Below the pieces are notes generated by a model that saw only the letters and a program-made list of their open reading frames with translations, had not been told where the DNA came from and searched no databases. A DNA stretch of 64,000 bases from Bacteroidales bacterium (GTDB taxonomy: Bacteria > Bacteroidota > Bacteroidia > Bacteroidales > VadinHA17), in assembly GCA_036261255.1 (NCBI GenBank), contig DATALD010000035.1:683-64682 (forward strand), given 5' to 3'. Position 1 is the stretch's first letter; each line of letters begins with the position of its first letter. The position numbers were made by a program, and so were the translations under genes. This document shows, one piece after another, positions 58 through 9,325 of the stretch.

Positions 58-3000
58 TTAAGGATTATAAAACTTAAGACCCCTGGGAATAACAAAATCG
101 TCATTTGAGAATGGGAAATCATTTTCCAATGCCTTGATAATTCCTAATCTAATTTTGGTCCAACCAGCCGAGTTATTTATATATGGAACATTTCGTAGAA
201 ACAATCTCCCATCTTCATATGCAGCATTATCCGAATATGATTTAAAATTTGGGTAAATTTTGTCCAATCCTAGAAAATAATGAAATGCATGAATCAGCTC
301 ATGTCGAGCAACATAATGAAGTGAAAGATCATTCATTGTAGAATTCGGAGAAATTGATATTTTCACTCCACCAAAATAAGCAGGTTTTGTTACTCCACCA
401 ACGTATACTCGCTCTCCATCCTTAATCCGGTACCAAGCTCCTTTTAACCTATCAAGCATTAAGTATCCGGGCTTTTTCAGGTTTATATCTCTAATGTCCC
501 AGTCGCCTTCTCCATAACCAACTTCATTCTTTATATACGATTCGACATAACTTTCCGACTTCATTGTCCCTGCACTATTTGGGATTCTTTCAGCTTCAGA
601 AATACTTTGTGTTCTAATCAAGCTGGATAAGCCAAATGCAATTGCTCCTGAAAAAGCGGATGCTTTCCAATTTACATTAAAATCGTTTTGATAAGCATAG
701 GAATTAATTCCTGAGTTTATTGCTGTTGACAAGAAAGCTGATGTGCCATCTTTTAATGCGCTTATAAATGGACTGCTCCCTATCGGTATTACATTAACAA
801 GACTACCTACTCCAAGAGTGATTCCAACTTGTATTGCTGAAACACCAATACTTTTGCCAAAACCACACCAATAATTACCACCATCATTTTTTGCAGCATT
901 TCCAGCAATATCAGCTTGCATTAAAGCAAACCCAATAGCCATCCACCAGAATTCTCCACTAGGATCAGTATATTTAAGGGGATTGTTTATACAATAACTA
1001 TACCTGTTAAAGCTCTGAGAGAGATCGGGCATCTGGACATAGGGATCGGGAGAGAGAAATCTTCCCAGGGCAGGATCATATACCCTGCCATTCATGTTTA
1101 TAAGCTCAAACTCCTCGAGGTGCTCGTGGCCTGTAAAACCCCTGTCTGCAAAGAGGTTGTATGTCGCAGGGATTGTCCAGTCAGAAACATCGCGCTTATT
1201 GCCCCAGGCATCGAAGCTTTGCCGTGTTACTGCGCCTGTTGAAGCATCAACAAGCTCTGTCAAAGAACCTAAATGATCAGTAAAGGTATAATATAATTTG
1301 CCTGGATTGGCGCCTTCAATAAAGTAAATTGCACAGATGCCTGTTGGCGAGCTTACAAAAAAGTACTTGTTTGTCGTACTGCCATTGTTTACTTCTTCGT
1401 AGTCGCCAAAAAAGTACTTTGTTATTGTTGTTGAGTTATGTGTATATACTGTTTTCTTCCTTTGTTCATCAATACCATAAGTAAGGACAAGGTTTCTTAA
1501 TGAATTATCAGGAAGTGTGTCGGTTATTGAAAATATCTTGTTAAATGGGGTATATGTAATTAATTGTCTTAAAGGATAGTAGCTTGCATTATCTATTGAT
1601 GTTAGTGCATGAGGCCCATAATTTTCCTCCCCGTAGTTAATATCACCCTGCGACGCTATTTTTGTTTTTCCGGTTATGTTGCCCAGATTATCGTAGTACA
1701 TTGTCCTATCACCGGAGGAGTTATGTGAATTATTGTGATAATATTCAATTGTTGTTAGCCTGTTCAGATTATCGTAAATAAAGACTTCCTTTTGATTTGT
1801 GAGGTTATCAAACCTGAAATTCAGGTTTTTAAGATCATCAAAACCATAGGACATGTTTCTGACACCCGCTGTTGACATACCCTGTAAATCTCCAAATTCA
1901 TTATAAGCCACCGAAGTGTTATATGACCCCTGGTTGAATGATGTGATCTGTCCTAATGCATTCTCAGCAGTTGCCTCCCAAAGGGTATGGCCGGAATCGC
2001 TGATCTTTGTCAGATAACCCTTGTCGTTGTAAGTTTTTGATACCTGGTAGCCGGTAGACCAGTTTTGGTTTTTCATTCTTCCAAATGCATCGTATGTGTA
2101 CCATGTTGTCAGCGCTTTGCTTACTCCGTTTTGCTGTGTTGTCTCCGTCTGGCTTAATAATTGTCCGGTGCCACTATCGTAATTAAAATATATAGTATTA
2201 GATCCATTGTTGTAATTAACAGAATTAGTAACACCCAATAGTGATTGATCGTATGCATATACAGTTGAGACGCCATTAATCTGTTCAGATGTTACTCGTC
2301 CTGCAAGATCGTATTCGTAAGTTGTTACCTGGTTTTTATTATCCTTTGTACTTTTAAGATTGCCCAAAGCCGTATAAACATTAACTATTTTTCCGGCATC
2401 CGGATCATTAATTGTATCGCGATTACCATAGATATCGTACGTAAACTGGGTCTTAAATGTAGATCCATCTATCTGCATCTCTTTTGGCAAACCCGAGGCA
2501 TAATACCTTGTTATAACTTTATTTAAGCCATTGTCAATGCTCTCAATTGTTTCTCCCAGAGAATTTGTCTTCTTTGAAGTTTTCTGGGTATGACCAGTCT
2601 TACCGCTTGTTACTGAAACTTCTCTTACACCATAGCTATATGTTGCAAAACTGCCATCTGCATTCTGCAAACTTGAAACCCTGTTGTAAGCATCATATTC
2701 TGTTGTGTTCCAAAGGGGAGTGGATCCGGAGAAATATGGCAATGATTCCCTCCATGGTCTTTGGGCAAAATCATATAGTTTATCCTGGTTCACGATATTT
2801 CCGGTCAGTCCGATTGTTGAGGTTCTTAGCACTTTACCGAATTTATCATAGTAAGTAGTTACAGGAGCGCTTCCTGATGCTTGTTTTACAGAATAATAAG
2901 TTGATCCCGAAGGTGCAGAAGGATTGTCCCCGGTCCAGAACAGACTCGCCATTTCCTCCATTTTGTCATGATAGATTGTCTTCTTCAATCTGCCGAAACC

Positions 3001-6000
3001 ATCATAGTAGTAATTAGTTACAAAACCATTAATATCAGTCTGACTCTGCAACAAACCTGTCTCATCAGAATAAACGAAAGATTCTGTGTTTTGCAGAACA
3101 TCTGTTTTTGTCAGAGGAAATCTCCCATCTGCAGTGTATATAACTCCTGATGTCCTGGACCGATTATCATATTGATCAAATGAAGCTACTGTTGTAATGG
3201 AAGTGACATTGCCATAATTATCATAAACATAACTTTTCTTCACTTCCTTGGCAGTTCCTCTCTGGGTATATTCATCTTTCAAGGCTCCATTGGTTGAGAA
3301 GTACTCAAAATCAAATTTTCTTGCATAATCACTGACACCTGGTCGAATCTGCCTGGTTCTTTTCTGAGTTAACTGACCAATAAACCATCTTCCATTTGAA
3401 GTGTTATGGGAGTAAGTCAAACTGTCAATTGTTTCAGCTTCCTTAGAATAATGCGACCAGTTTTGTGTGATTATTCTTTCAGGAAGCAAGTAATTCGAGT
3501 ATGACAGTAATTTTTTTACCTGTCGAGTATCGTTTAAAATATCAGTTGATACTATAGAATCAACTAATACATTATAAGTGTTATTTAGGGATTTACTTGA
3601 ATAGTAGTTAATACTGCTTGATACTGCATTATTGTTAATTGACATTGTAAGAGTGTCTGGAAGAAGCTTACATTTTGACCCTTCCAAAAAAATGCTAAAG
3701 TGTTGTCTTGATTGACTTTTTACAGCAACTGTACTATCAATAGTATTGATAGATGAAAAACCTAAAAAACCCTGTCCATTTGTATGCATCAAAGGTTTGT
3801 TAAAACTATAGAAAGTATAATTATTATCTTCTTGGACTTTAGAAATGGTTTTGTTAAAAGTGGAAAGAATAGTGATATTCCTTGAACCATCTGGCAGTTC
3901 CTTTAAAGACTCTTTTCCAATTGGGTAAAAAGCTTTTTCATAAGAAATATCAATATATCTACCTGTACCATTTGTAATGTTATTTATTTGATTAAATCCA
4001 AAACCCTTTGAAACTGAATAAAAGAATGGGTTGCCAATACCAGCAAAACAATCCAAAGTGAAATCTTTATCCGCTTCCCCACAGTATCTCAAATAGTGAT
4101 TGGGGACATTGCTCTGAGTTAATTTCAAGTCAAAACTGGTCCCTTTTGAAATAAATAACATAATTTCCTTGGATGTACTAACACCATTATTCCAAATATT
4201 TCTGGCTTCTAAAATGTCTGATTTGCCATCTTGATTAAAATCAGCTATAGAGTAATCATGTTTGCTTGATAAGTAAGTATTAAGAGATGGAGGCACAATA
4301 GTACTTGTAAATAAAGTATTTCCATTTGATGCAAGTATGTACCAAGTAGTTTGGGAAGTATCAAGGAATAGAATATCATCATTCCCATCCCCATTAAAAT
4401 CCCCAACGAAAAAATTATCAGTTTGATTAGCACCATAGTAAATATATTTACAGTTAAATTTGGCATTGCTCTTTTCGTATTCCCAGAATTCAATTTTATT
4501 TGTTTTCAAGAAAACAAGCTCTTGCTTTGAATTGCCATTTATATCTGAAATAAGATAACTTAGTGAAGAGCCAAAGACAGTGCTGGAACAACCGAAATTA
4601 AACTGCAGACTATTTTCATACGACATATCATTTTTCAATAATAAAAGATCAGGTTTGCCATCTCCTTCAAAATCGGTGTGAACTAAATTTACATCATTAT
4701 AATTGGAATTCCATAGCCTTATTTTTATATCAAGATCAGTTTGCCTTGAAAAGGCACCATTATTATACTCATATCCCCCAAATTTAACATATGGATAACC
4801 CCATGACATTGTAGAATCCTCATTATAAGTGTACTCTGTATGTTCATATTGGAAGTATAATTCGGATTTGCCATCAAGATCATTATCGAATATGTAGTAT
4901 TTTCTATTATCTGGTATGGCTCCTTCTGCCAGAACTGGAAGATTGCTACTTACTGAACCAGGATTAAGAAAAACGGCCCAATTATACTTAATTGAACCAG
5001 TTTTGTAGTAGCCATAAGTAACAAAAAAATCAGTAATACCATCTCCATTGAAATCTCCCGGCGAATGAACAAGATTTGGATAACCATATCCTTCAGCGAT
5101 CCTTTGTGCCAAATGATTTGGATTTTGAAAACTGTATGCATCTGACTTGTTATATGTATAATTTTCTTCAGACCAGTCAAAAACAGTATAATTATATTTT
5201 TCATTGTTTTTGCCTGTAAGCTGGACTTTTTCCAACCTTGAATATGAATCGTTTGTATAAATAAGCGAATATTCTCTTAAGGTTGAGAGTGCACCTCCAA
5301 TATAATTTACTTTTATTGTAGATAGTCTTTTAGTTGTTTTTAATTCCTCTCCAAAGATGTATCCGACAATTAGATCATTCCGATTTTCATAACCAAATTC
5401 AATTTTATAATCACCACCGGCATAAACTATTTCTTTTAAACGATGATTAATTCTTGTGTTCGTTGAGGTTGTCGTTATATTACAGTAATAATCGAATCCT
5501 CGGGATACATCTCCGCTATAAATTGGAGACTGAAAACCGGGATCGTTCCAGTTATAAAATAAAGAATCACCAACATATTGTGTGCCTCCGATCAATTCTG
5601 ATTCGTAAACAAAACTTATCTGGTTACTAAATGGATCGCTTACAGAAGTGAGCATCCATCCCAGCGTTCTAGTCCTGGTTATTGTGGTACTTGAATTCCA
5701 ATTAACATTAGGGTATGGCGTACATAAGTAATAATCTGTACTTTCTTCATTGATAGACATATCCATTCTTGAAGCATAAGTATACTTTTTGCCATCACCA
5801 GTCCACACCTTAAAACTTTCTGGTCCATTCTCATCGAAATTATATGCCATTATTTTTGTTGTATAATCCGATTCTTTGGCATATTCTATACTATCAGCAT
5901 TTGCCTGTGTGGAACCATAAGGATACTTTGTTTTTATGAATAATCTTGCCCCATCGATTGCAAAGACATCTGATTCATCCCATTTGATCTCTTTGGCTTC

Positions 6001-6498
6001 TGAATCATTATAAACAGTTTTTTGGGTTCTGGTGATTGAGGAAAATCCTGCAATATTCCATCCCCATCCTGCAACACCATTTCCAGCCTGGCTGTTATAA
6101 ACAAGAGACACTGATGGAGTCATGCCATTAATACCAGCAGGACATTCGATAGGTATTGAATAAGTGGCAGCACCTGTAGGACTTACATTAAACTGCCCTG
6201 GTATTGCTCCAACCACACCATTGTTATCAACTATTTCACCAACAGTTCCTCCAGGATCACCAGTAATGTTTCCGACTGGCTCAAATAACAACCTTGGATT
6301 AATACTTGCTTTAAAGTTGTTTCCCTGGGTTGCTGAGTATGAAAATCCAGGTTTAAGAGAAATATAATCTCTTGCAATGTATTCCTGTGTGCCGGATTGT
6401 GCTGTGTTAAGGATGTAATGTTCTTGTTGGCCGTTTGCTATGGTGTTTGTCGCAATAAATACAACAATCATAAAAGCTTTTTTGAGATTTTTGAACAT
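58..6498 (-). CDS. Giant secreted SpvB/TcB-like + FG-GAP propeller + YD/Rhs-repeat shell protein with Rhs core and C-terminal HExxH toxin domain (polymorphic toxin, Tc BC-fusion-like)
   Basis: 2146-aa ORF with signal peptide MFKNLKKAFMIVVFIATNTIANG. SpvB-type motif GAATYSIPIECPAGINGMTPSVSLVYNSQAGNGVAGWGWNI. FG-GAP motifs DFNGDG, DFEGDG and DFNQDG. More than 10 YD repeats (YVYDNYGN, YYYDGFGR, FTYDIYGN, YEYDLAGR, YTYDAFGR...). Rhs core GRVYDPALGRFLSPDPY...NNPLKYTDPSGEF, with the DPSGE Asp codon at 964-966. HELIH at 289-303. Confidence 0.92.
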   Translation of the reverse strand: MFKNLKKAFMIVVFIATNTIANGQQEHYILNTAQSGTQEYIARDYISLKPGFSYSATQGNNFKASINPRLLFEPVGNITGDPGGTVGEIVDNNGVVGAIPGQFNVSPTGAATYSIPIECPAGINGMTPSVSLVYNSQAGNGVAGWGWNIAGFSSITRTQKTVYNDSEAKEIKWDESDVFAIDGARLFIKTKYPYGSTQANADSIEYAKESDYTTKIMAYNFDENGPESFKVWTGDGKKYTYASRMDMSINEESTDYYLCTPYPNVNWNSSTTITRTRTLGWMLTSVSDPFSNQISFVYESELIGGTQYVGDSLFYNWNDPGFQSPIYSGDVSRGFDYYCNITTTSTNTRINHRLKEIVYAGGDYKIEFGYENRNDLIVGYIFGEELKTTKRLSTIKVNYIGGALSTLREYSLIYTNDSYSRLEKVQLTGKNNEKYNYTVFDWSEENYTYNKSDAYSFQNPNHLAQRIAEGYGYPNLVHSPGDFNGDGITDFFVTYGYYKTGSIKYNWAVFLNPGSVSSNLPVLAEGAIPDNRKYYIFDNDLDGKSELYFQYEHTEYTYNEDSTMSWGYPYVKFGGYEYNNGAFSRQTDLDIKIRLWNSNYNDVNLVHTDFEGDGKPDLLLLKNDMSYENSLQFNFGCSSTVFGSSLSYLISDINGNSKQELVFLKTNKIEFWEYEKSNAKFNCKYIYYGANQTDNFFVGDFNGDGNDDILFLDTSQTTWYILASNGNTLFTSTIVPPSLNTYLSSKHDYSIADFNQDGKSDILEARNIWNNGVSTSKEIMLFISKGTSFDLKLTQSNVPNHYLRYCGEADKDFTLDCFAGIGNPFFYSVSKGFGFNQINNITNGTGRYIDISYEKAFYPIGKESLKELPDGSRNITILSTFNKTISKVQEDNNYTFYSFNKPLMHTNGQGFLGFSSINTIDSTVAVKSQSRQHFSIFLEGSKCKLLPDTLTMSINNNAVSSSINYYSSKSLNNTYNVLVDSIVSTDILNDTRQVKKLLSYSNYLLPERIITQNWSHYSKEAETIDSLTYSHNTSNGRWFIGQLTQKRTRQIRPGVSDYARKFDFEYFSTNGALKDEYTQRGTAKEVKKSYVYDNYGNVTSITTVASFDQYDNRSRTSGVIYTADGRFPLTKTDVLQNTESFVYSDETGLLQSQTDINGFVTNYYYDGFGRLKKTIYHDKMEEMASLFWTGDNPSAPSGSTYYSVKQASGSAPVTTYYDKFGKVLRTSTIGLTGNIVNQDKLYDFAQRPWRESLPYFSGSTPLWNTTEYDAYNRVSSLQNADGSFATYSYGVREVSVTSGKTGHTQKTSKKTNSLGETIESIDNGLNKVITRYYASGLPKEMQIDGSTFKTQFTYDIYGNRDTINDPDAGKIVNVYTALGNLKSTKDNKNQVTTYEYDLAGRVTSEQINGVSTVYAYDQSLLGVTNSVNYNNGSNTIYFNYDSGTGQLLSQTETTQQNGVSKALTTWYTYDAFGRMKNQNWSTGYQVSKTYNDKGYLTKISDSGHTLWEATAENALGQITSFNQGSYNTSVAYNEFGDLQGMSTAGVRNMSYGFDDLKNLNFRFDNLTNQKEVFIYDNLNRLTTIEYYHNNSHNSSGDRTMYYDNLGNITGKTKIASQGDINYGEENYGPHALTSIDNASYYPLRQLITYTPFNKIFSITDTLPDNSLRNLVLTYGIDEQRKKTVYTHNSTTITKYFFGDYEEVNNGSTTNKYFFVSSPTGICAIYFIEGANPGKLYYTFTDHLGSLTELVDASTGAVTRQSFDAWGNKRDVSDWTIPATYNLFADRGFTGHEHLEEFELINMNGRVYDPALGRFLSPDPYVQMPDLSQSFNRYSYCINNPLKYTDPSGEFWWMAIGFALMQADIAGNAAKNDGGNYWCGFGKSIGVSAIQVGITLGVGSLVNVIPIGSSPFISALKDGTSAFLSTAINSGINSYAYQNDFNVNWKASAFSGAIAFGLSSLIRTQSISEAERIPNSAGTMKSESYVESYIKNEVGYGEGDWDIRDINLKKPGYLMLDRLKGAWYRIKDGERVYVGGVTKPAYFGGVKISISPNSTMNDLSLHYVARHELIHAFHYFLGLDKIYPNFKSYSDNAAYEDGRLFLRNVPYINNSAGWTKIRLGIIKALENDFPFSNDDFVIPRGLKFYNP

Positions 6499-6533: not shown

Positions 6534-7004
6534 TTAATTTTTTACAATCCTGTAGTTATAAATACTGCCATTAATCCCGATAATAAGTATATATACACCA
6601 TTGCTCAGATCGGTGAGATTGAGCTCGGTTTCAGGCAGAATTGCTTTTACTTCTTTTAATTGTGTACCGCCAAGATTAAAAACCTGGCATCGTCCATTGG
6701 AGGAAAGAGAAAATTTCTCAAATACTATTTTCAACATTCCGCTTGTAGGGTTTGGGTATATCTTAATGCTCTCCGCTTCAGGTATTGCAAGCTCCTGCTC
6801 ATCCTCCTGTGTTTTTATTTCTTTTTCATCAAGAGGAAAACTTACTTCACCTTTTGGCATGTCAGTGACAGAAAGAACCCTCGACTCTCTGTTTCCGTTA
6901 TCATCGTAGGTATAAGTGATCCTGTTGCTCTGAGCAATGAGGTTATTGCCAATAAAGATTGCCAGGATCACTGTTGTCAGGTAAGTAGATAGGTTAGTTT
7001 TCAT
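6534..7004 (-). CDS. Small secreted protein: signal peptide + single YD repeat + acidic linker + T9SS (Por) C-terminal sorting domain
   Basis: 156 aa. Signal-like N-terminus LTTVILAIFIGNNLIAQ. YD repeat ITYTYDDNGNRESR. C-terminal IKIYPNPTSGMLKI...LSNGVYILIIGINGSIYNYRIVKN matches the T9SS CTD pattern (YPNP, G.Y motif, basic end). Confidence 0.8.
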   Translation of the reverse strand: MKTNLSTYLTTVILAIFIGNNLIAQSNRITYTYDDNGNRESRVLSVTDMPKGEVSFPLDEKEIKTQEDEQELAIPEAESIKIYPNPTSGMLKIVFEKFSLSSNGRCQVFNLGGTQLKEVKAILPETELNLTDLSNGVYILIIGINGSIYNYRIVKN

Positions 7005-7005
7005 A

Positions 7006-7335
7006 TCAGTTGTTTTTTTCGGCTTCGAGTATTTCGATTTTTTTGTTCAGTTCGATTATGTATAGGGTTAGTTCTTCAATTTTCTGCAGCATTTTTGTCT
7101 GCATCTCGCTAACACTCATTCCATCTGTCTGCATTTCATATGCTGATGCAACATCAGGAAGATGTTTGTTTTCTTCAATGTATTTCTCAACTTCAGCCAG
7201 TTCGGGGAGGTTGTATCCGGGATCGAAGACAAAATCGGCGCCGGAGGTGTTTACGACTATTTCGTCAGCGCGGATTTTACCAGAAACGTTTAACCTGTAG
7301 TTACCAGGATCTGTTGTTCCAATACCAACATTCCC
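7006..7335 (-). repeat. Copy 1 of the conserved 3' coding module of the fibre-like family
   Basis: Last 109 codons of P1, from GNVGIGTTDP to the stop. Clear nucleotide-level similarity to the other four copies. Confidence 0.85.
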
Positions 7336-7833
7336 ATCATCCGTTATTCTCAATCTTTCAGAGTACCCCCCCGTATGGAATGCAAAATATCCATTACGTG
7401 TATAGAATCTGGTGTTAACAGAAGCCTGTGTATTATATCTATCAATAAACTCAAAATAATTATCTGTCCCAGGATGATATTCCATACCTCCTCCAGAGGC
7501 ATATACATGAAATTTGGTATTTGGGGAGCTGGTACCTATCCCAACATTTCCATTCGACTGTATCGCGAATTTTATATCCTGATAATCACCTTTACTAACT
7601 ATCCAGTCCTGGAGAAGATTACCAAAAAACCAGTTATCACTACCATCAAGAAACTTTGTTTGTATTCCCTGTATAAAACCTCCTACGTTGGTGTTTCTCT
7701 GCAAAATCAGGTTTGGTGACCAATCTGCAATTCTAACTGGACCGGCCAGAGGATAGTCGTTATTCAATTGAGCAGCCAGGGCAGCAGGCAGGATCATAAA
7801 CAAAACGAGTAGGTATTTTTTCATATAAGTCAT
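7006..7833 (-). CDS. Secreted fibre-like paralog P1 (GNVGIGT repeats + conserved C-terminal coiled-coil module); function unknown
   Basis: 275 aa with a signal peptide. Two GNVGIGT(S/T)xP motifs. C-terminal IRADEIVVNTSGADFVFDPGYNLPELAEVEKYIEENKHLPDV...MQTKMLQKIEELTLYIIE is shared with four neighbours. Its start overlaps the P2 stop by 4 nt if M1 is used. Confidence 0.8.
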   Translation of the reverse strand: MTYMKKYLLVLFMILPAALAAQLNNDYPLAGPVRIADWSPNLILQRNTNVGGFIQGIQTKFLDGSDNWFFGNLLQDWIVSKGDYQDIKFAIQSNGNVGIGTSSPNTKFHVYASGGGMEYHPGTDNYFEFIDRYNTQASVNTRFYTRNGYFAFHTGGYSERLRITDDGNVGIGTTDPGNYRLNVSGKIRADEIVVNTSGADFVFDPGYNLPELAEVEKYIEENKHLPDVASAYEMQTDGMSVSEMQTKMLQKIEELTLYIIELNKKIEILEAEKNN

Positions 7834-8177
7834 GGATTAACCGGTTCGTATTCTTTCAATTTTTCTTCAAGAAGCTTTATTCTCTTTTCCTGATCGATTA
7901 TGTAAAGAGTCATTTCTTCCATTTTCTGCAGGAGCTTTGTCTGCATCTCGCTCACATTCATCCCTTCTGACTGCATTTCAGAGGCATGCGCAACATCAGG
8001 AAGGCGTCTGTTTTCTTTTATGAAGTTTTCAACTTCAGCCAGATCTGGGAGGTTGTATTCTGGATCGAAGACGAAATCGGCGCCGGAGGTGTTTACAATG
8101 ATTTCATTAGCACGGATATTACCGGAGACGTTTAGTTTATATACACCAGGATCAGAGGTTCCAATTCCAACATTGCC
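7830..8177 (-). repeat. Copy 2 of the conserved 3' module
   Basis: Last 115 codons of P2. Confidence 0.85.
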
Positions 8178-8978
8178 AACAGTGTTTATTCTGAGTCTCT
8201 CAGTCCCATTAGTACCAAGTGTTAGAAATCCTCCATCAACACTTCCTCCCCGATAAAAACTAATAAATCCATTATTACGATTGTCATAGAACTGTTGTGT
8301 TATTCTAAAAGTTTCACAATTAGCTGGTGAAGTTGAACCACTACTAAAAATCAATTTATTATCTTCGGAGCTTGTTGCAAGGATGGCTGCATCAGAATTT
8401 GGCCCATTATTTATATGGAGTTTTGTTATGGGTGTTGTTGTACCAATCCCCACCTTCCCATCATAATTCCATAATCCATTTCCGGGAAGATTAACAACAC
8501 CGGCAAAATTGTTCTGATAATCAACTGTAATAGTGTTGTTACCATAAACTTGTTCGTCAACAATAGACCAACCTTCAAACCATGCAGGTAATTCGGAAAA
8601 CCCACTTGCAAATACTCTTACATTGAATCGTTGAAAATATCCCCTTTCATCAATGAAAATAACTACTTTGCCTTCTTCTGTTGTAAGCTTGACAGTAGGT
8701 GTCCAACCACCCCAGGAGGATAGTTTTGGCGCATAGAAGATATTATCATATGTATAATAATTTAAGGTTAATCCAATTGAAGATTGACCCCCATAATTAT
8801 AACCTTCAAAAATTATAGTAGGCATCTGGCTTGAATTAATAAAAGGCAGGTTTGTTTTAATCTTAACGCCATATGAAGGTGTTCCATTATACGCATAACT
8901 TACCGGATTGTATACCTGTGAGAGGGAGATCGCATAAGAAATTTGAATTGCAATGAGGAATGAAATAATCTTTTTCAT
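7830..8978 (-). CDS. Secreted fibre-like paralog P2
   Basis: 382 aa with a signal peptide. Unique N-terminal ~170 aa, then GKVGIGTTTP and GNVGIGTSDP motifs and the shared C-terminal module. Confidence 0.8.
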   Translation of the reverse strand: MKKIISFLIAIQISYAISLSQVYNPVSYAYNGTPSYGVKIKTNLPFINSSQMPTIIFEGYNYGGQSSIGLTLNYYTYDNIFYAPKLSSWGGWTPTVKLTTEEGKVVIFIDERGYFQRFNVRVFASGFSELPAWFEGWSIVDEQVYGNNTITVDYQNNFAGVVNLPGNGLWNYDGKVGIGTTTPITKLHINNGPNSDAAILATSSEDNKLIFSSGSTSPANCETFRITQQFYDNRNNGFISFYRGGSVDGGFLTLGTNGTERLRINTVGNVGIGTSDPGVYKLNVSGNIRANEIIVNTSGADFVFDPEYNLPDLAEVENFIKENRRLPDVAHASEMQSEGMNVSEMQTKLLQKMEEMTLYIIDQEKRIKLLEEKLKEYEPVNP

Positions 8979-8986
8979 GGTAGCTC

Positions 8987-9325
8987 TTATAATTCAGTTT
9001 GGTTGTGTTTCATCTCAAGATCGTTAATCCTTTTATCCTGTTCAATGATGTAAAGTGTAAGTTCCTCAATCTTCTGCAACAGCTTTGTCTGCATCTCACT
9101 CATGCTCATGCCATCTGTCTTCATTTCTTCAGCCGAAGGAATATCTGGAAGATGATCGTTTTCATTTATGTATTTCTCTACTTCAGAGAGATCGGATAGT
9201 TTATATTCCGGCTGAAATACAAAATCAGCGCCTTCAGTATTTACAACGATTTCATCGGCACGGATTTTTCCGGAAACATTAAGTCTGTAATTTCCGGGAG
9301 CTGTGTTACCTATTCCAATGTTTCC
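8987..9325 (-). repeat. Copy 3 of the conserved 3' module
   Basis: Last 112 codons of P3. The most diverged copy. Confidence 0.85.

Follow-up and report, generated by a model that had tools for sequence, protein, structure and literature searches.

At this locus, a gene for a protein of only 156 residues stands between a run of fibre genes and a giant Rhs gene. Its product (P0001, here called the mini-protein) combines a signal peptide, a YD-type hairpin and a linker with a T9SS sorting domain. What could such a protein do for the toxin encoded next to it? The window, that is the whole stretch of Bacteroidales DNA that was analysed (64,000 nt), contains the following features of interest:

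6534..7004, minus strand: mini-gene P0001, 156 aa, with signal peptide, YD-type hairpin, linker and T9SS type A sorting domain
6933..7004, minus strand: signal peptide, residues 1-24, with a hydrophobic helix at 4-23 in the model
6870..6923, minus strand: beta-hairpin, residues 28-45, with invariant Y33, D34, G37, N38 and R39 and near-invariant R42
6768..6869, minus strand: polar acidic linker, residues 46-79, predicted to be disordered and variable in length across the family
6537..6767, minus strand: T9SS type A C-terminal sorting domain, residues 80-156 (PF18962, TIGR04183, fold match)
7006..13375, minus strand: five tandem paralogous fibre genes of 275, 382, 508, 413 and 468 aa, with signal peptides and a shared C-terminal domain
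58..6498, minus strand: partner toxin P0002, 2146 aa, with Sec signal, N-terminal motif, SpvB, FG-GAP, RHS repeats, Rhs core and tip

The initial annotation had described the architecture and the gene spacing accurately, and its statement that the Rhs giant is devoid of a sorting domain also holds, as neither Pfam nor NCBIfam detects one in P0002. The stop codon of the nearest fibre gene (7006-7008) is 1 nt away from the mini-gene start at 7004, and 35 nt separate the mini-gene stop (6534-6536) from the Rhs start at 6498. Both gaps suggest that the mini-gene would be co-expressed with its neighbours. The genes of this run, from the five fibre genes through the mini-gene to Rhs, are not separated by any terminator-like site. 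A search for expression data on this locus found none, and the only runs containing it are soil-metagenome DNA runs.

The sorting domain of P0001 scored well over both cut-offs, with 39.2 bits for PF18962 (cut-off 27; residues 82-146) and 39.4 bits for TIGR04183 (cut-off 23), the latter match covering residues 82-156 of 156 and thus reaching the extreme C-terminus. No further domain was found in the protein by Pfam, NCBIfam or PHROGs. The N-terminus has the features of a Sec signal peptide, with a basic K2, the hydrophobic helix and then A-Q. Since signal peptides of Bacteroidota are cleaved before Q according to the published 'Q-rule', cleavage is likely to take place before the near-invariant Q25. 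An AF2 (AlphaFold2) model built on 73 homologues placed the signal helix at residues 4-23, the hairpin strands at 28-33 and 39-45 (pLDDT about 95), a low-confidence linker after these and a beta-sandwich at 80-155 (pLDDT 92-98). When this sandwich was compared to solved structures with Foldseek, the best match was the NucA CTD in the T9SS translocon (8glk_D; TM 0.90 by target, rmsd 1.6), followed by the mirolase CTD (8qb1_A; TM 0.76). The same genome encodes the T9SS machinery, including SprA (2651 bits) and the PorU sortase (1223 bits).

The mature part in front of the sorting domain consists of the hairpin region (ITYTYDDNGNRESR, residues 29-42) and the disordered linker, of which KTQEDEQELAIPEAE (residues 64-78) is a section. 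It had been called one YD repeat. A YDxxG core (Y33-D34-x-x-G37) is indeed present and sits in a predicted beta-hairpin, but it is not an ordinary RHS repeat: PF05593 (RHS_repeat) stayed below its threshold of 22 bits with a score of 14 (E 0.069), TIGR01643 gave no reported match in NCBIfam, and the hairpin carries the specialised sequence YDxxGNRxxR. The unit occurs as a single copy and is not part of a tandem shell array.

A word-based homologue search with P0001 as single query returned only the protein itself. Six-frame searches of related genomes revealed small ORFs of identical layout, and a profile of eight members recovered more than 120 full-length small ORFs among 401 genomes of the order. 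With a profile of 73 sequences, which was searched against 1.84 billion proteins, at least 636 cluster representatives (50% identity) were found at E ≤ 1e-30, nearly all of them 137-195 aa long. P0001 matches the 73-sequence profile over its full length (3.5e-35) and contains all invariant residues. We define the family by a signal peptide, the motif [FY]xYDxxGNRxxR no more than a few residues from the cleavage site, a polar linker and a sorting domain, by a length of 137-195 aa and by its position beside an Rhs gene. It spans many families of the order as well as other orders of the class, and a related cluster with RHS_repeat plus tag is recorded for Rhodothermota. Where the sources name the members at all, they are called 'hypothetical protein' or 'T9SS type A sorting domain-containing protein'.

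Among the 73 aligned members, Y33, D34, G37, N38 and R39 are invariant, as is PNP in the sorting domain, and Q25 and R42 are conserved in at least 90%. The open frame is intact in every one of these members. The linker is 21-58 aa long across the family (median 35), and 75% of its residues are polar or small. We compared the motif with 515 YDxxG shell repeats from 48 Rhs proteins of the partner type. YDxxGNRxxR was present in 67 of the 73 minis and in none of the shell repeats, of which 3.1% have GNR and none GNRxxR. Position +3 of the motif is small in the minis, whereas it is aromatic or hydrophobic in the shell repeats; position +2 is small in the minis too. By this comparison, the hairpin of P0001 is a specialised variant of the YD motif and not a typical shell repeat. 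An invariant motif that has no counterpart in the shell indicates selection on the hairpin itself, and this constraint points to a specific binding role, which we would assign to the hairpin.

The initial annotation had asked if Rhs genes in related genomes are regularly accompanied by such a mini-gene, and they are. We examined 70 loci, one per genome, that were picked by profile score only. In 40 of these, an SpvB/Rhs gene in the same orientation starts at most 300 nt downstream of the mini-gene (median gap 37 nt), and in another 11 one or two genes lie in between, so that the mini-gene is upstream in 51 of the 70. The opposite order was found at ten loci, where it comes just downstream of an Rhs core gene and a small (immunity) gene. 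In total, 61/70 loci pair the mini-gene with an Rhs gene, while two end at a contig edge and seven have no Rhs gene within reach. Conversely, all nine SpvB-Rhs genes of five near-complete genomes have a mini-gene, seven upstream and two downstream. When all 401 genomes were scored, 76 contained both genes, 10 only the mini-gene, 32 only SpvB and 283 neither, a distribution for which the Fisher value overstates the significance because the genomes are related.

We inspected 20 of the loci scored as SpvB only, from 19 genomes. Divergent mini-genes were found in three genomes, and one locus encodes a protein with the hairpin, PKD-like and Ig-like domains and the tag; the other loci have Rhs genes that are cut by contig ends or belong to other SpvB classes. 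Mini-genes also occur in arrays of displaced Rhs cores and toxin tips (L066 and L067; genomes G110 and G240), in which each unit consists of a mini-gene, a truncated tip and a small gene. In G240, at least six such units follow each other within 16 kb. On the evidence of gene order, the mini family is functionally tied to Rhs toxins.

The partner toxin P0002 begins with a Sec signal and a conserved N-terminal motif, which are followed by SpvB (residues 106-301), an FG-GAP propeller, RHS repeats (PF05593, E 1.1e-19), the Rhs-associated core (TIGR03696, 64.3 bits, residues 1763-1848) and the tip. The tip (residues ~1850-2146, positions 58-950 of the window on the minus strand) contains a HELIH motif of the HExxH type. 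It has no Pfam match at E ≤ 0.1 and no significant sequence match in the PDB (best E 0.11), and might represent a metallopeptidase-like toxin domain that has not yet been described. Beyond the left edge of the window (L141, contig C15:1-760), the Rhs stop is followed after 10 nt by an ORF of 118 aa whose N-terminus contains a hydrophobic segment and which is likely to be an immunity gene. After it comes a 43-aa remnant that matches the Rhs core region (…VTRQSFDAWGNKRD…) and looks like a displaced toxin-tip relic. With repeats, core, variable tip and small downstream gene, P0002 is, as far as its predicted domains go, laid out like an Rhs polymorphic toxin. Residues 34-68 harbour a motif, ARDxIxLxxGF…FxAxI, that is common to the partner Rhs proteins. 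It matches the 3-coathanger stack domain NF045639 only weakly and below threshold (20.4 bits against 26), and we consider it a candidate docking or sorting element.

Several family members carry additional domains. In the variant L093:5146-6432 (plus strand), which lies directly upstream of an Rhs gene, a full Endonuclease I domain (E 2.8e-36) precedes hairpin, linker and tag. In L097, a region with a weak F5/8 type C match (lectin-like) lies before the hairpin, and the N-terminal domains found at this place in L092 and L095 have no Pfam annotation. All of these variants retain hairpin, linker and tag, and an Rhs gene follows downstream in all but L092. In one further member, the hairpin is N-terminal and PKD-like and Ig-like domains replace the linker. 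In other genomes (L136, L137 and L138), an SpvB class of ~3200 aa is preceded by a tag-bearing protein of 500-590 aa that has no YD motif. Pfam detects only the sorting domain in these 500-590-aa partners and leaves their N-terminal region unannotated; a LamG label for them was dropped, as it is unconfirmed and the sorting domain is their only Pfam match. As the tagged partners at SpvB loci vary in this way, the common element is a separate protein bearing a T9SS tag, and the YD hairpin is, on present comparisons, the module specific to the Rhs class of ~2100 aa.

Two further types of tagged protein were observed. In the same genus (L013, L015 and L016), proteins of ~165 aa with GGxAxGxGGSVSYTVGQV and a sorting domain are encoded directly upstream of large repeat proteins, and this family may be another mini-partner system. 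In addition, L099:1920-3380 and L100:4252-5721 encode T9SS cargo of ~490 aa with about nine YD-style repeats of ~25 residues (WQNNAWVN…TYTYDANGN) and a sorting domain; these genes have no adjoining Rhs gene.

A role of the mini-protein as a T9SS-linked partner of Rhs is likely. More specifically, we propose that in Bacteroidota with a T9SS the mini-gene product is an accessory dedicated to Sec-exported SpvB/FG-GAP/Rhs toxins and consists of a hook, a tether and an anchor, and we give this proposal an even chance of being correct. Sec export and cleavage of the signal peptide would leave the YD-type beta-hairpin ([FY]xYDxxGNRxxR) at the N-terminus. The disordered linker of 21-58 residues would connect it to the type A sorting domain and give it reach. 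The T9SS would recognise the sorting domain, move the mini-protein across the outer membrane and probably swap the tag for a surface anchor, and the Rhs protein is the proposed binding partner of the hairpin. The toxin cocoon would thereby be held on the surface of the producer, or on vesicles, beside the co-encoded fibres; less likely, it would be pulled through the T9SS. A separate anchor would make sense for Rhs: with the encapsulated toxin forming its C-terminus, the protein presumably has no place for a tag at this end.

Of this proposal, the domain layout, the existence of the family, the motif constraint, the linkage to Rhs genes and the T9SS genes are observed, whereas we infer the binding to Rhs, the chemistry of anchoring and the route of export. 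That the hairpin docks on the Rhs protein and tethers it, as the initial annotation had suggested, is plausible and well supported by the association of the genes. Since the hairpin is unlike the shell repeats, its addition to the shell as one more repeat is not implied, and its target could be another surface of the Rhs protein, for example the propeller or the N-terminal motif. The seven of 70 loci that lack an Rhs gene within reach and the ten genomes with a mini-gene and no detected SpvB speak against the proposal.

The same gene linkage would be expected if binding of the mini-protein to Rhs took place in the periplasm and the entire toxin, which has no tag, were then carried by the sorting domain of the mini-protein through the SprA translocon, as a T9SS counterpart of Tat co-translocation. 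Such true hitchhiking is further in line with the Sec signal and the missing tag of the Rhs protein and with the co-expression suggested by the 1-nt and 35-nt gaps. However, the folded cocoon of ~2100 aa is large in relation to the SprA lumen: a folded Tc-type cocoon is wider than the lumen published for SprA. We also found no precedent in the literature, and know of none, for a tag-less toxin hitchhiking through the T9SS. We regard this explanation as unlikely. Because passage of the cocoon through SprA is sterically improbable, tethering to the surface or to vesicles is favoured over hitchhiking. A broader idea sees in the mini-protein the first T9SS export adaptor that acts in trans; its hairpin would clip the tag-less Rhs cocoon, and its sorting domain would either export the cocoon or anchor it beside the machinery. 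This idea is a tentative one that we are inclined to doubt.

The mini-protein might also be an accessory of the Rhs system that does not bind the shell and instead regulates or gates the propeller, serves as a kin or self marker, or contacts a ligand on the target cell or envelope by means of its two arginines. The difference between its motif and the shell repeats and the conservation of both arginines would fit such a function, and the nuclease and lectin-like passengers of the variants suggest that the module can display other activities on the surface. The strict one-to-one pairing with Rhs and the YD-type motif are, however, best explained by a direct partner, and we consider an accessory of this kind improbable, a little more so than hitchhiking.

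Finally, the hairpin could dock on the co-encoded trimeric fibres and not on Rhs, thereby anchoring the fibres to the surface. The fibres resemble both phage tail-fibre PHROGs, with E values as low as 3e-11, and Bdellovibrio fibre proteins of known structure (8ond, 8oml and 8ol4; E 3e-5 to 1e-4). Their conserved C-terminal domain of ~100 aa (…DFVF…NKHLP…LLQKIEELTLY…) has no Pfam or NCBIfam model. Like the Rhs protein, the fibres have signal peptides and, according to Pfam and NCBIfam, no sorting domain; five fibre genes precede the mini-gene in the window, and homologues with the shared C-terminal domain adjoin the mini-gene in 26/70 loci. Yet Rhs is present in nearly all of the 70 loci, and no more than 26 of them were found to contain such fibre genes. 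A predicted complex of three P0003 copies with residues 24-81 of the mini-protein reached an ipSAE of 0.00 against a mark of 0.32, which lends no support to such docking, although a low score of this kind is not evidence against binding. We judge docking on the fibres to be very unlikely. Judging by their position beside the mini-gene in 26 of the loci, the fibres could form the targeting component of the toxin module.

That the mini-gene encodes unrelated small T9SS cargo, or is a decayed fragment of a larger YD protein as the initial annotation had considered, and merely travels with Rhs loci is hardly credible, despite the subthreshold RHS_repeat match and the mini-genes in arrays of displaced toxin tips (L066, L067), as all 73 sampled members are intact, the motif is invariant and atypical of the shell, and the pairing is kept across many families and in two gene orders; decay of a shell fragment in particular is ruled out by the invariant non-shell motif in an intact, widespread family of at least 636 clusters.

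With one hairpin, two conserved arginines and one tag, the family offers a simple genetic handle on the deployment of Sec-exported SpvB/Rhs toxins without T6SS parts. In P0001 to P0005, no PAAR, VgrG or EagR/DUF1795 match was found with Pfam and NCBIfam. The members of the mini family are present at nearly every SpvB/Rhs toxin locus of this kind, and they also bear on a possible involvement of the T9SS in bacterial warfare. Binding of the hairpin to the cocoon, if it occurs, would mean that cargo can be coupled to the T9SS in a new way, and it would give a general annotation rule for hundreds of 'hypothetical T9SS sorting-domain proteins'. If the mini-protein were an export adaptor, the T9SS would serve throughout Bacteroidota as a route by which Rhs toxins are delivered in contact-dependent warfare.

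The adjacency of such genes has already been published. In P. gingivalis 381/ATCC 33277, the T9SS cargo gene PGN_1817 lies upstream of PGN_1818, the largest Rhs (Moradali et al. 2019, PMC6775972), and most SpvB/TcdB-type rhs genes of Apibacter adjoin genes for type A sorting-domain proteins (Steele & Moran 2021, PMC8125069). A link between Rhs and T9SS is suggested in both papers, a mechanistic one in that on P. gingivalis. Like the mini locus, the loci described there have a T9SS-tagged gene beside a Sec-type SpvB/Rhs gene. The sections of the two papers that deal with these loci report adjacency only and define no family, lone hairpin, hook-tether-anchor layout or variants. Our literature search found no paper that defines the mini family, its motif or its mode of action. 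A comparable situation is known from the TANFOR toxins, which have a Sec signal, no sorting domain and neighbourhoods enriched in T9SS cargo, and for which T9SS dependence was hypothesised (Jana et al. 2020, PMC7073777). There, however, the scaffold is TANFOR and not SpvB/Rhs, and the neighbours are large SprB, Fn3 or PKD cargo and not a hairpin mini-protein.

The Rhs adaptors of the T6SS (PAAR, VgrG and EagR chaperones) and the Tat 'hitchhiker' co-export share the concept of a separate protein that couples a signal-less toxin or passenger to a secretion machine. No sequence relationship was found, and neither the secretion machine nor the step at the envelope is shared; the analogy would be functional only. 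With the RHS/YD shell repeats (PF05593, TIGR01643) of Rhs and Tc BC cocoons, the mini-protein has the YDxxG core and the hairpin in common; it differs from them in its single copy, its score below the Pfam cut-off, the invariant GNR and the R at +9. Ordinary T9SS type A cargo such as RgpB, mirolase and NucA likewise combines a Sec signal with a C-terminal beta-sandwich sorting domain. Compared to these proteins, the passenger of the mini-protein is a hairpin of ~18 residues with a disordered linker in place of an enzyme or adhesin domain, and the mini-gene is linked to a single partner gene.
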